The translations under genes and the position numbers were made by a program. Shown here one piece after another: positions 6,190-29,765 of a DNA stretch of 64,000 nt. The notes beneath the pieces were generated by a model. It searched no databases, had not been told where the DNA came from, and was given only the letters and a program-made list of their open reading frames with translations. Source of the stretch: an uncultured delta proteobacterium (GTDB lineage Bacteria; Myxococcota_A; Polyangia; Haliangiales; Haliangiaceae); the NCBI GenBank assembly GCA_963774445.1, contig CAVZFC010000035.1, positions 261,470-325,469 of the forward strand, written 5' to 3'. The number at the start of each line of letters is the position of its first letter. Position 1 is the stretch's first letter.

Positions 6190-6264
<75 letters not shown>

Positions 6265-13078: not shown

Positions 13079-13639
13079 GTGACCCGCTGGCTCATCGCCC
13101 TGGCCGTGGCCGGCGCCCTGGCCGCCGCGCCCGCCGCGGCGCGCGCCGACGATCTGCCGTCGGGCCAGCTGGGCACCGTCGGCGGCGTCCGCCAGGGCAC
13201 CGGACAGCTGGGCGAGGTTTTCGGCCTGGGCGGCATGCTCGGCATGCGCGCCGGCTGGCAGCGCTCCAGCACCGAGCGCCACTGGTCGTTCGGCGTCGGC
13301 TGGGAGGTGCTGTGGGGTTTCTTTGCGGCCAACGACCCGGGTATCAGCAACGAGTCGCTGCGCCTGCTGGAGATGAACCTTGGCCTGCGCGTGCGCCGCC
13401 TGCTGGGTCAGGGGACGCCGCGGTTCTTGTTGCTGCAGAGCGGCGTGACCGTGCTGCGCTCCAACGTGCCGATCCCACCGGACTCGGAGCGCAACTACGT
13501 CGGCCCGTATGTCGGCCTGGGCATCGAGCAGTACCTGCTGGGCCGCTTCCTCTTGACCGTCGAGTGGCGCTACGGCGTCCTCGTCGGCGGCCCCGGTAGC
13601 CTGACCGGGCTGATCAGCTTCTCCGTCGGCAACCGCTGA
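13079..13639 (+). CDS. secreted small beta-barrel-like protein, hypothetical
   Basis: Signal peptide ...AAPAAARADD. Alternating hydrophobic pattern. C-terminal LISFSVGNR. Confidence 0.45.
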   Translation: MTRWLIALAVAGALAAAPAAARADDLPSGQLGTVGGVRQGTGQLGEVFGLGGMLGMRAGWQRSSTERHWSFGVGWEVLWGFFAANDPGISNESLRLLEMNLGLRVRRLLGQGTPRFLLLQSGVTVLRSNVPIPPDSERNYVGPYVGLGIEQYLLGRFLLTVEWRYGVLVGGPGSLTGLISFSVGNR

Positions 13640-13800
13640 CGCGGCGAGGGCGCACCCTTCGACTACGGGCGCTACGCGCCCTCCGCTCAGGGTGACCGGA
13701 ACGAAGGCGCGGGCGGTTGATCGAGGCCGGTCGCCCTGAGCGAGCGGCGCGCGCGAAGCGGGCGCCGCGGTGTCGAAGGGCGCGCCTGTGGCGCCCGCGC
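13640..13800. repeat. composite palindromic REP-like element (same family as 28106..28170)
   Basis: Contains gcgcacccttcgac...gctcagggtgaccgg and ccggtcgccctgagc...gtcgaagggcgcgcc. These are the two arms of the 28.1-kb palindrome, here arranged around a central spacer. It lies between convergent genes. Confidence 0.6.
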
Positions 13801-13866
13801 GCCCCGGACGCAAGAACGCCCGGGGGGCCGGTGGGCCGCCCGGGCGTCCAGACTATCGCAGCCGTC

Positions 13867-14208
13867 TCAGATCTTGCCGAGGAGCATGAACGAGATGACC
13901 AGCGCGTAGATCACGAGCGACTCGATGAGGGCCAGGCCCAGAATCATCGGCGTCATGATCTTGCCGGAGGCGCCGGGGTTGCGGGCGATGCCGTCCAGCG
14001 CGCTGGCGGCGGCGCGGCCCTGGCCCATGCCACCACCGAAGGCGGCGATGCCGATGCCCAGGCCGGCGGCGAGCGCGATCCAGCCCTTGGCGCCCTCCTT
14101 CGCGGCTGCGACGCTGGTGCCGTCATCGGCGAACGCCACGGCGGCGATCGCCAGGACCGTGAGCGCCGACAGCGCCATCAGAATGAGCTTGATCTTGCGG
14201 TTCGTCAT
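13867..14208 (-). CDS. atpE: F0F1 ATP synthase subunit c
   Basis: 113 aa. Hairpin with GRAAASALDGIARNPGA...LALIESLVIY. ATG verified at 14206-14208. Confidence 0.9.
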   Translation of the reverse strand: MTNRKIKLILMALSALTVLAIAAVAFADDGTSVAAAKEGAKGWIALAAGLGIGIAAFGGGMGQGRAAASALDGIARNPGASGKIMTPMILGLALIESLVIYALVISFMLLGKI

Positions 14209-26317: not shown

Positions 26318-26916
26318 AGTCGCGCCGGGGGCAGATCGTCCCGCTGCGCCGGGTCGTCGGCGACGCCAGCGAGATGTCGGACGAGGCGCTGCTCGCCGCC
26401 TGCGCCGTGGCTGAGCCGGCCGCGCTCGGCGCGCTGTTCGACCGGCACGCCGCCTGCGTGCACCGGTTCCTCGGCCGCCTCGCCCCGGCCGGCCGCGGCG
26501 ACCTGGACGATCTGGTGCAGATGACGTTCGTCGAGGTGTGGAAGTCGTCATCGCGCTTCCGCGGCACCGGCTCGGCGCGCAGCTGGATCCTCGGCATCGC
26601 GGCCAACGTCGCCCGCCACCACGCGCGCGGCGAGGCCCGCCGTTCCAGCGCCTTGCGCGACCTGGCCGAGGTGCCGCGGCCGCGAGCGCCGCGCCCGGAT
26701 GAGCAGGCCGCCCGCGGGCAGCTCGTCGAGCGCCTGGCCGACGCCGTGCGCGCGCTGCCCCACGACCTGCGGGTGGCGTTCGTCCTGTGCGACGTCGAAG
26801 GCATTCCGGGAGCGGCCGCCGCACGCTCCCTGGGAGTTCGCGAAGGAACCATGTGGCGCCGGCTGCACGACGCGCGCAAGCGCCTGCGCACCCGGCTCGA
26901 AGGGAGGCCATCATGA
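26314..26916 (+). CDS. ECF-family RNA polymerase sigma factor
   Basis: Region 2 (DLVQMTFVEVWK) and region 4 (AARSLGVREGTMWRRLHDARKRLR). GTG start. An alternative ATG lies at 26374. Confidence 0.8.
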   Translation: MKSRRGQIVPLRRVVGDASEMSDEALLAACAVAEPAALGALFDRHAACVHRFLGRLAPAGRGDLDDLVQMTFVEVWKSSSRFRGTGSARSWILGIAANVARHHARGEARRSSALRDLAEVPRPRAPRPDEQAARGQLVERLADAVRALPHDLRVAFVLCDVEGIPGAAAARSLGVREGTMWRRLHDARKRLRTRLEGRPS

Positions 26917-28067
26917 CCGCCGAGGAGCTGGCCACGCTCGCCCGCGAGCTGCCGCACCCGCCGCTCGAGCCGGCGCGGGCGGAGGCCATTCGCAGTAGCT
27001 TGCTCGCCGAAGTCGAAGCGACCGCGACGGTGCCCGCGCACCGCCTCCGCCGCTGGGCCGCACCCGCCGCGGTTGCGCTGGTCGCCGCTGCCGCGGTGGC
27101 CCTGTGGCTGGGGCTGCGCGGCGGTCCCCACGCGACCCCGTCCGCACCCGAGTTCGCCCACCACGGCACCGTGCAGGCCCCCGACGGCGCCCAGTTCGTG
27201 CACACCGCCAAGCCGGCCGTTGACGGCGCCACCGATGAGGTCGTCAGGCTGCGCTCCGGTCACGTCACCGTCGCCGTGGCCGACGTCGCCACCCGCGACC
27301 GCTTCCGCGTCGTCACCGGCGACGCCGAGATCGAGTCGCGCGACAGCGCCTTCGACGTGAAGGTCGAGGGCGACGCCCTGGCCGGCGTCACCGTGCATAC
27401 CGGCGTCGCCGAAGTGCGCGTCCACGGCCAGCAGACCGTCCTCCTCGGCGCCGGCGAAACGTGGCCCCGCGAGGAAACCAAGGTCGTCGTCCAGGATCTC
27501 GACCTGGCCGCCCCCGCGCCCGCACCCGCACCCGCAGTCCAGCAGGCCGCTCATCCTGAGCGGAGCCCGATCCCTCGACAAGCTCAGGACCAGGGGCCTC
27601 GGGCGGAGTCGAAGGAGCCCACCCCCGCGCCCGCGCCCACGCCCGCGCTGACCCAGGCGGAGCCGCCCGCTGCCGCCCGCGCCCCCTCGGCCAGCCCGAT
27701 GGAGCAGGCATTCCACGACGGCTGGACGTCGCTGCGCGACAAGCAGTTCCGCACCGCCGCCGACGCCTTCGCCCGCGCCGCGCGCATCGATCCCGACGCG
27801 CCGCTGGCCGAAGACGCCCACTACTGGCTCGCCGTCGCCCGCGCCCGCGCCGGCCAGACCCGCCGCGCCGCCGCCGCCATGCGCGACTTCCTGTCTCGCC
27901 ACCCGTTCTCCGATCGCGCCGGCGAGGTCTCGGTCATGCTCGGCTGGATCGAGCTCCGCGCAGGCGACCACGCCCACGCCGAAGCGCATTTCCGCGCCGC
28001 CATCGACGACGACCGCACCGACGTCCGCGCCAGCGCCCGCGCCGGCCTCGACGCCCTGACCCGCTGA
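26913..28067 (+). CDS. anti-sigma factor (FecR-like domain, TM segment, C-terminal TPR-like region)
   Basis: ATGA overlap with the sigma gene. TM segment AAPAAVALVAAAAVALWL. RFRVVTGDAEIESRDSAFDV is FecR-like. Confidence 0.7.
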   Translation: MTAEELATLARELPHPPLEPARAEAIRSSLLAEVEATATVPAHRLRRWAAPAAVALVAAAAVALWLGLRGGPHATPSAPEFAHHGTVQAPDGAQFVHTAKPAVDGATDEVVRLRSGHVTVAVADVATRDRFRVVTGDAEIESRDSAFDVKVEGDALAGVTVHTGVAEVRVHGQQTVLLGAGETWPREETKVVVQDLDLAAPAPAPAPAVQQAAHPERSPIPRQAQDQGPRAESKEPTPAPAPTPALTQAEPPAAARAPSASPMEQAFHDGWTSLRDKQFRTAADAFARAARIDPDAPLAEDAHYWLAVARARAGQTRRAAAAMRDFLSRHPFSDRAGEVSVMLGWIELRAGDHAHAEAHFRAAIDDDRTDVRASARAGLDALTR

Positions 28068-28105
28068 TCCCGCGCGCACGAACCAGGTACCCACCAGCCA
28101 CCGAG

Positions 28106-28170
28106 CCGGTCGCCCTGAGCTTGTCGAAGGGCGCATCGGACGCGCCCTTCGACAGGCTCAGGGCGACCGG
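28106..28170. repeat. near-perfect 29-bp-arm palindrome (REP-like element)
   Basis: ccggtcgccctgagcttgtcgaagggcgc-atcggac-gcgcccttcgacaggctcagggcgaccgg. One mismatch between arms. It lies between convergent genes. Confidence 0.85.
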
Positions 28171-28214
28171 AGACAAAGCCGTGCTGGATGGGAACGTCGG
28201 TCGTAGCCGGCGGG

Positions 28215-29765
<1,551 letters not shown>

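Follow-up and report, generated by a model that had tools for sequence, protein, structure and literature searches.

The stretch of DNA analyzed here (the window; 64,000 nucleotides of a contig from an uncultured delta proteobacterium) carries a near-perfect palindrome at positions 28106-28170, in the gap between the 3' ends of two converging genes. One encodes a FecR-domain and TPR protein and the other, on the opposite strand, a response-regulator-GAF-HD-GYP protein. The palindrome (site 1) is not one basic element but two short-form units arranged head-to-head, and we think it probable that they are copies of a dispersed repeat, a short non-coding hairpin of the kind represented by repetitive extragenic palindromes (REPs), bacterial interspersed mosaic elements (BIMEs) and REPINs. 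The features of the site and its two neighbors are as follows, with unit scores taken from a covariance model, R1, that was built from short forms only.

26787..28067, + strand: FecR-domain and TPR protein, anti-sigma-like (Pfam); stop codon 39 nt before the palindrome
28106..28134, + strand: unit 1, short form, left arm of the palindrome, CCGGTCG-CCC-T-GAGC-TT-GTCGA-A-GGG-CGC (R1 39.3 bits, E = 9e-11, over 28105-28139)
28135..28141, no strand: central spacer ATCGGAC, 7 nt, the loop of the long hairpin (sequence and folds)
28142..28170, - strand: unit 2, short form, right arm of the palindrome, the - strand reading CCGGTCGCCCTGAGCCTGTCGAAGGGCGC (R1 40.3 bits, E = 4e-11, over 28137-28171)
28215..29765, - strand: response-regulator-GAF-HD-GYP protein (Pfam); stop codon 45 nt from the palindrome on its other side

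An original prediction, made from the letters of the window, described arms of 29 nt with a single mismatch, and this is exactly what the sequence reads: CCGGTCGCCCTGAGCTTGTCGAAGGGCGC-ATCGGAC-GCGCCCTTCGACAGGCTCAGGGCGACCGG, where each 29-nt arm has the form CCGGTCGCCCTGAGC[T/C]TGTCGAAGGGCGC and the loop is the 7-nt ATCGGAC. The sole mismatch opposes T28121 and G28155, a T.G wobble when the + strand folds and a C.A mismatch when the - strand does. A repeat search returns arms of 32 nt (28106-28137 and 28139-28170) with 94% complementarity. Both units share the inner triplet CCC/GGG, and the dimer is therefore a near-perfect 65-bp palindrome. Folding of both strands, which the prediction had proposed as a check, gives very stable RNA hairpins of -74.7 kcal/mol for the + strand (shuffled sequences, -37.8 +/- 3.5; z = -10.5) and -75.1 kcal/mol for the - strand (z = -9.0), with 0 of 200 shuffles equal in either case; the DNA fold is -41.3 kcal/mol (z = -10.9).

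Two open reading frames (ORFs), 27934-28176 and 28121-28513, had been dismissed as artifacts that translate the palindrome, and we agree: neither has a Pfam match, and both run across the palindrome and into the 3' ends of real genes on the opposite strand. The idea that the palindrome arose by chance, or that these ORFs are genuine genes, is favored only by the existence of the ORFs in sequence of 70% G+C. It is refuted by fold z-scores of -9 to -11 that none of 200 shuffles equaled, by the missing Pfam matches and by the recurrence of the motif across sequence collections, and its probability is close to nil.

Comparison of the window copies with several hundred copies from public collections defines a basic unit of ~29-35 nt, 5'-CCGNTCR-NNN-T-GAGC-[X]-GTCGA-A-N'N'N'-Y, to which GANCGG is added in some copies. 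After the 5' CCGNTCR come three variable nucleotides, then the invariant core (T-GAGC-[X]-GTCGA-A) and then a triplet complementary to the first, with a final Y. Position X is occupied by 2-3 nt, by a GNA triloop or by an entire GC hairpin (P2). The unit has a sharp 5' boundary, with C at -10 and at -9 in 75-76% of copies and nothing conserved upstream, and on the 3' side conservation fades beyond +4. The flanks of the unit pair as a helix (P1) that is closed by tandem G.A/A.G pairs and a G-C pair, and the core itself can pair as U-A, tandem G.A/A.G and G-C. Where X is 2 nt a 5-nt loop results, and where X is 3 nt a C-G pair with a bulged T forms around a GNA triloop. In the long form, the core opens into a GNA/GNA internal loop leading to a GC-rich P2 hairpin with a 3-nt loop; the sequences of P2 hairpins vary around a constant frame of GNA-stem-3-nt loop-stem-GNA.

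Support for P1 comes from a gap-free alignment of 99 distinct units that have the 13-nt core and were not chosen by either scan pattern. Each of the four inner P1 pairs is a standard pair in 75-97% of these units and has undergone 19-32 double (compensatory) changes, and the pair beside the closing T-A is C-G in 64 units and G-C in 27. The alignment has a covariation score of 0.416, compared with an average of 0.191 for shuffles (0 of 500 reach 0.416) and no more than 0.22 for registers slid by 1-3 columns. The closing T-A covaries too, with C-G (..tcccGAGCGAAGTCGAggga..). The outer pairs are formed in only ~40-60% of copies, and in many dimers the outer CCGNTC and GANCGG halves pair between units and not within one unit. 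The unit is an imperfect palindrome of 29-35 nt able to form a stem-loop, with P1 supported by covariation, and those at site 1 match R1 at 39-40 bits.

The prediction had also placed the same half-motifs near 13640-13800, in a rearranged composite palindrome. They do recur there, at 13650-13786 (site 2), and the site is composite; more exactly, it consists of two complete long-form units arranged tail-to-tail, each with its own GC hairpin between GAGC and GTCGA.

13650..13699, - strand: long-form unit A, the - strand reading CCGGTCACCCT-GAGC-GGA-[GGGCGC GTA GCGCCC]-GTA-GTCGA-AGGGTGCGC (R1 weak, 14.2 bits)
13700..13726, no strand: spacer of 27 nt between the tail-to-tail units (sequence and fold)
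13727..13786, + strand: long-form unit B, CCGGTCGCCCT-GAGC-GA-[GCGGCGC..GCGCCGC hairpin]-GGT-GTCGA-AGGGCGCGCC (R1 18.6 bits, E = 1e-3)

The weak score of unit A follows from the short-form composition of R1. The composite adopts a four-branched fold, with energies of -113 and -106 kcal/mol for the + and - strands (z = -5.5 and -5.7, respectively). A third copy, which the prediction overlooked, lies inside the FecR/TPR gene and was identified both with a gapped-motif search and with the covariance model.

27554..27616, + strand: intragenic long-form unit, TCCT-GAGC-GGA-[GCCCGA ... TCGGGC]-GGA-GTCGA-AGGA (sequence and motif search)
27571..27589, - strand: short unit nested in opposite orientation in the P2 loop of the intragenic unit, the + strand reading TCCCTCGACAAGCTCAGGA (R1 28.9 bits, E = 3e-7, over 27563-27597)

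This copy lies in frame in a Pro/Ala-rich linker of the anti-sigma gene, where it encodes the middle of ..HPERSPIPRQAQDQGPRAESKE.. and supplies ~22 residues (..PERSPIPRQAQDQGPRAESKE..) of the protein. In FecR/TPR homologues the linker at this position is unalignable and variable in length. The unit is open in five of its six reading frames, as can be read directly from its sequence, which fits the tolerance of in-frame copies. The window thus has six units at three sites, and a scan of its 64 kb with R1 returned no copy beyond those three.

Both intergenic sites lie between converging genes, as had been predicted. At site 2, a 186-aa ORF (13079-13639, + strand) faces the gene for ATP synthase subunit c (stop at 13867, - strand); the ORF has no Pfam match, and the label 'OMP-like' that it had been given is therefore unverified. 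Between the repeat units and atpE, ~20 nt past the stop codon of the latter, there is a separate GC-rich hairpin (13816-13847; 4-nt loop and 14-nt arms with 93% complementarity) that may be the 3' hairpin of atpE itself. At site 1, the FecR/TPR gene is directly preceded by a gene for an extracytoplasmic function (ECF) sigma factor (Sigma70_r2 and r4_2; ~26329-26916), as in the homologous loci L223-L225 (loci collected from other sequences are given L numbers here), and 'anti-sigma' is therefore a reasonable label. We also note that the FecR ORF as listed (GTG, 26787) probably starts ~50 codons early, overlapping the sigma gene.

The repeat is widely dispersed in bacteria. Its 19-nt core, CCCTGAGCYTGTCGAAGGG, is present in at least 120 IMG/VR contigs, and the site 1 arm, searched as CCGGTCRCCCTGAGC-N(2-32)-GTCGAAGGG (15 + 9 nt), in at least 102 stretches of GTDB species genomes (isolates and metagenome-assembled genomes). 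Together with the third site in the window, these matches bear out the prediction of a REP-like dispersed family. The arm matches listed come from about 15 phyla and include (i) Burkholderiales, Sphingomonadales and Methylococcales; (ii) among Myxococcota, the complete genome of Anaeromyxobacter oryzae as well as Kofleriaceae and Archangiaceae; (iii) among Bacteroidota, three contigs of Mucilaginibacter dorajii and a complete Mucilaginibacter chromosome and (iv) Nitrospirota, Nitrospinota, Acidobacteriota, Binatia, Chloroflexota, Spirochaetota, Fibrobacterota, Marinimicrobia and two lineages of the candidate phyla radiation (CPR). Variovorax and Porphyrobacter isolates are among the carriers listed, and BLAST finds unannotated copies on plasmids of Sphingobium, Novosphingobium, Comamonas and Moraxella osloensis. 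No match was found in 5,426 Escherichia coli genomes or in 50,697 cultured-phage records. Away from the copy that seeded each search, the carrier loci contain ~36 further sites per Mb, compared with 0 in a shuffled control. The distribution is patchy, with no R1 matches on 13 related loci (88 kb). In M. dorajii (L148, L157 and L190), whose G+C content is 42%, the GC-rich dimer is embedded in a repeat of 90-170 nt with conserved AT-rich flanks, which suggests lineage-specific composite elements built around the shared core.

About half of all units are singletons, and where units are paired, inverted dimers (86; 46 head-to-head and 40 tail-to-tail) greatly outnumber direct ones (16). The partners of a dimer often differ in their inner triplets (e.g. 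L032, L047 and L215) and hence form two hairpins, not one long palindrome. The ends of head-to-head dimers, CCGNTC...GANCGG, constitute terminal inverted repeats, which at site 1 are the 29-nt arms. The sequences that flank these dimers tend to be inverted complements of each other, rich in C to the left and in G to the right. Nesting of the type seen at 27554-27616, exactly at position X and in opposite orientation, is also found in L014, L146, L154, L165 and L193. In addition, some loci (L055, L064, L196 and L037, from the viral collection and Bacteroidales) have units repeated head-to-tail in tandem, at periods of 21, 23, 44 and 70 nt and with constant spacers, in arrays that resemble small satellite expansions of the repeat.

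Terminal inverted repeats raise the question of whether the element derives from a DDE transposon, as a transposable element of the miniature inverted-repeat kind (MITE) with ends of the insertion sequence (IS) type. The sharp 5' CC boundary of each unit would suit such an origin, as would the head-to-head dimers of 50-200 bp with CCGNTC...GANCGG facing outward and the small size of elements devoid of coding capacity. Target-site duplications are missing, though, from 39 of 42 head-to-head dimers, which argues against a DDE-type mechanism and against the term 'MITE-like', used in the prediction, in its strict sense. The tail-to-tail arrangement is roughly as frequent as the head-to-head one, and many units are singletons; covariation of the inner stem is found within a unit, which an inverted repeat bound by a transposase would not need; and none of 222 loci shows a full-length element with a transposase between two units. 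We regard a MITE origin as very unlikely.

Two questions bear on whether the element belongs to the genes beside it: (i) does it accompany their orthologues and (ii) does it prefer convergent junctions, as the prediction had supposed. For the first, 80 metagenomic loci with HD-GYP orthologues (44-78% identity) were compared. None has a unit immediately downstream, so that conservation of the element with the flanking HD-GYP gene is not supported, and the 3' flanks of these loci are unrelated to one another. The FecR neighbor is likewise shared by none of the 80, and the FecR homologues have another gene downstream. At the position equivalent to site 1, downstream of the closest HD-GYP orthologue on a long contig, metagenome contig Ga0315336_1000002 (L228, 4546-4700) has a different repeat family, an unrelated tandem repeat with a unit of about TATTGCGGCGTGCCTGCGCACGCCTTGGGCCGCGGGCGCTGAC.

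For the second question, sites in genomes comprise 45 in co-directional, 14 in convergent, 12 in divergent and 18 in intragenic positions. These numbers differ little from the baseline, and the tally is indicative only, as it relies on a crude gene finder based on G+C at third codon positions that mis-called some genes. Related alpha-proteobacterial operons resembling gene transfer agents (GTAs) have units in different, co-directional spacers in each genome and in both orientations relative to transcription, and a dimer on the Moraxella plasmid lies inside an operon, where the gene for a TonB-dependent receptor has its stop codon 45 nt before it. A particular association with convergent junctions is thus not borne out. 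The sequence comparisons indicate that units were probably gained at many independent places, as expected of a dispersed, mobile or formerly mobile repeat and not of a conserved regulatory site of particular genes.

The position of both intergenic sites between convergent 3' ends, and the extreme stability of their hairpins on both strands, could also mean that each of the two gene pairs evolved, in place, a dedicated intrinsic terminator that acts in both directions. The prediction had proposed bidirectional terminators, and in the canonical sense this fails: the hairpin tails are AGACAAAG and CTCGGTGG, neither strand has a T-tract after the hairpin and a terminator scan returned 0 terminator-like sites at sites 1 and 2. 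Moreover, this sequence is found again in hundreds of contexts and phyla that are unrelated, the HD-GYP orthologues have quite different downstream sequences and, at site 2, the separate GC hairpin at 13816-13847 is nearer to the atpE stop codon. The observed distribution largely refutes a terminator as the origin of the element, and we judge the proposal quite unlikely. The element instead looks like a selfish REP-type repeat that lies by chance between converging genes. It may nonetheless affect transcripts. Hairpins of this kind in the REP elements of E. coli block 3' exonucleases and possibly slow read-through. By analogy, the site 1 hairpin of about -75 kcal/mol, situated at the 3' ends of both transcripts 39 and 45 nt beyond the stop codons, is likely to block 3' exonucleases and may slow read-through.

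Several observations weigh against a dispersed selfish repeat. A core that does not vary, flanked on each side by helices that covary, is more suggestive of selection on a structured RNA or DNA motif than of a selfish repeat in decay. Among the inner pairs, G.T exceeds A.C by 36 to 12, a weak hint, from copies that are not independent, that one strand matters and that GAGC..GTCGA would be the strand that folds. Neither the FecR homologues nor the 80 HD-GYP loci provided a pair of empty and filled sites in which insertion could be seen directly. In 222 loci, a random sample of copies, neither a transposase gene nor any other is a recurrent neighbor of the repeat. Finally, with no T-tract present, an effect on transcription is a prediction.

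The first two of these points, along with the modularity of P2 and the location of copies just after stop codons and in operon spacers, would also be accounted for if the units were functional structured RNA motifs or protein-binding hairpins, selected as cis-elements for the processing, stability or termination of transcripts. The internal loop UGAGC/GUCGAA between P1 and P2, with its tandem sheared G.A pairs and bulged U, would then be a putative binding site for a widely conserved RNA-binding protein or nuclease. Such a role is difficult to reconcile with units that face either way with respect to the transcription of an operon and show no clear bias. Since dimers are as a rule inverted, every transcript also bears an antisense unit. 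Units are found inside coding regions and nested in one another, they are absent from the 80 orthologous loci and otherwise patchily distributed, and no Rfam family matches them. We consider selected cis-elements unlikely, and favor the dispersed repeat.

How a repeat of this type might spread is suggested by its structure. All-against-all clustering of the ORFs in the 222 loci recovered only the alpha-proteobacterial GTA-like operons. Five ORFs are flanked by inverted units, none with shared homology to another, and in this random sample of copies, as distinct from whole genomes, and with part of the window ORFs scanned, no gene for a RAYT (a Y1 HUH transposase) flanked by repeats was found. 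A folded core defined by its structure, together with a modular P2, suggests by analogy with REP/RAYT systems or IS200-type ends that the unit could be recognized as single-stranded DNA or as RNA. Mobility, the nature of the mobilizing factor and the effect on transcripts are all inferred. Units would probably spread within and between genomes as folded single strands recognized by a putative trans-acting factor, and would accumulate where they do little harm: in short intergenic spacers, in gaps between converging genes and in disordered protein linkers, such that a nested pair could be tolerated in frame inside the anti-sigma gene. At site 1, the outcome would be a very stable hairpin at the 3' end of both converging transcripts that impedes 3' exonucleases and may attenuate read-through, as a by-product of the element and not as a function evolved for these genes. 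The hairpin may in this way insulate the transcripts of the ECF sigma/anti-sigma operon and of the HD-GYP gene from each other.

For annotation, recognition of the element accounts for the two spurious ORFs and flags a repeat-derived segment of 22 residues inside a genuine anti-sigma gene. The peptides LSLSKG, PFDKLRA, RPELVEG and RQAQ.E in predicted proteins are translations of the repeat. If a dedicated recognition factor exists, the motif offers a handle for finding it, and such a factor might also explain the spread of other REPs that have no transposase, those of the CGTC type.

Searches for a known counterpart gave no match. Rfam scans of the window at gathering and permissive thresholds assign no family to the palindrome, where there are only chance sub-threshold matches, and a gathering-level scan of 20 other unit-bearing loci gives 0 matches; the only gathering-level match in the window is a tRNA gene (6193-6264, - strand). 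Inspected by eye, the hammerhead ribozyme was rejected (the unit has CUGA and GAA but lacks G8/A9, the U-turn and a cleavage site), and loop A of the hairpin ribozyme, the kink-turn, the sarcin-ricin/loop E motif and the R-boxes of integron attC sites do not fit. Within the searchable literature, we found nothing that prints the unit sequence or its peptide translations, and the text and supplements of the paper that describes GTAG and CGTC REPs (Di Nocera et al. 2013, PMC3733652), as well as surveys, contain no matching sequence.

The closest resemblance is to the REP/BIME/REPIN group, such as the palindromic units (PU/REP) of E. coli and the RAYT-mobilized REPINs of Pseudomonas. Like these, the units are non-coding imperfect palindromes of 20-40 nt, with inverted pairs that fold into larger hairpins and no target-site duplication. 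They also seem to be dispersed in many copies, mostly in short spacers downstream of genes, as judged from three sites in the window, one of them intragenic, and from the ~36 further sites per Mb in the carrier loci. Unlike GTAG REPs and REPINs, the window units have CCGNTCR at the 5' end and no GTAG/GTRG head, and no flanked RAYT gene was found in the 222-locus sample. The small perfect hairpin GTAGCC-GGCG-GGCTAC (28203-28218), which overlaps the HD-GYP stop codon, resembles a GTAG REP but is present in the window as a single copy and does not represent a GTAG REP family. Classical REPs are lineage-specific, whereas near-identical units of the present family occur in about 15 phyla among the matches listed, and the family is absent from the 5,426 genomes of E. 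coli, a species with REPs of its own. The present family is also unusual among REP-like repeats in that the invariant part is the loop, constant across these phyla, and not the stem, which covaries, with no mobilizing gene evident.

Other short elements share single features with the repeat. Rickettsia palindromic elements (RPEs) are comparable in their tolerated in-frame insertion into genes, as at 27554-27616 of the window, but they are AT-rich, 100-150 bp long and confined to Rickettsia, whereas the present units appear mostly intergenic, and the family is GC-rich and found across phyla. Correia/NEMIS MITEs and inverted pairs of the DNA uptake sequence (DUS) in Neisseria are likewise short inverted repeats, often between converging genes, that give rise to transcript hairpins. 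These hairpins can end or process transcripts. Correia elements have TA target duplications and integration host factor (IHF) sites and DUS pairs are selected via DNA uptake, and neither feature is seen here.

CGTC-tagged REPs deserve a closer comparison. They have an unpaired CGTC/TGTC tag, a perfect stem of 8-9 bp starting A-T, T-A, a loop of 4-5 nt and a CCA tail, and form a cross-phylum super-family found chiefly in alpha-proteobacteria but also in Bacteroidetes, Spirochaetes and others (PMC3733652). The present family resembles them in its spread across phyla, in the predominance of inverted dimers (head-to-head for CGTC), in its intragenic copies and in having no known dedicated transposase. 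The window units differ in their paired CCGGTCG end, in a stem that starts with G-C and is interrupted by tandem G.A pairs, in a loop that is 11 nt or modular (a hairpin) and in having no CCA tail. In two hybrid units (L137 and L216), a CGTC-type stem, TGTCATTCC/GGAAT, surrounds the GAGC..GTCGA core. On the Dehalococcoidia chromosome OZ242019.1 (L198), a classical CGTC-type REP (GTCATTCCCGCTTTCGCGGGAATCCAG) lies ~60 nt upstream of a unit. The present family and the CGTC super-family may be related or share a mechanism. More tentatively, and with rather less than even probability, the units could represent a third, uncatalogued cross-phylum super-family of REP-like hairpins beside GTAG and CGTC, characterized by an invariant T-GAGC / GTCGA-A core with tandem G.A pairs, two freely covarying helices and a modular X at which hairpins or further units are nested. 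A super-family of this kind would imply a widespread structure-specific enzyme or binding protein, and a core conserved from CPR bacteria to Myxococcota would then point to a putative recognizer of folded single-stranded DNA or RNA.

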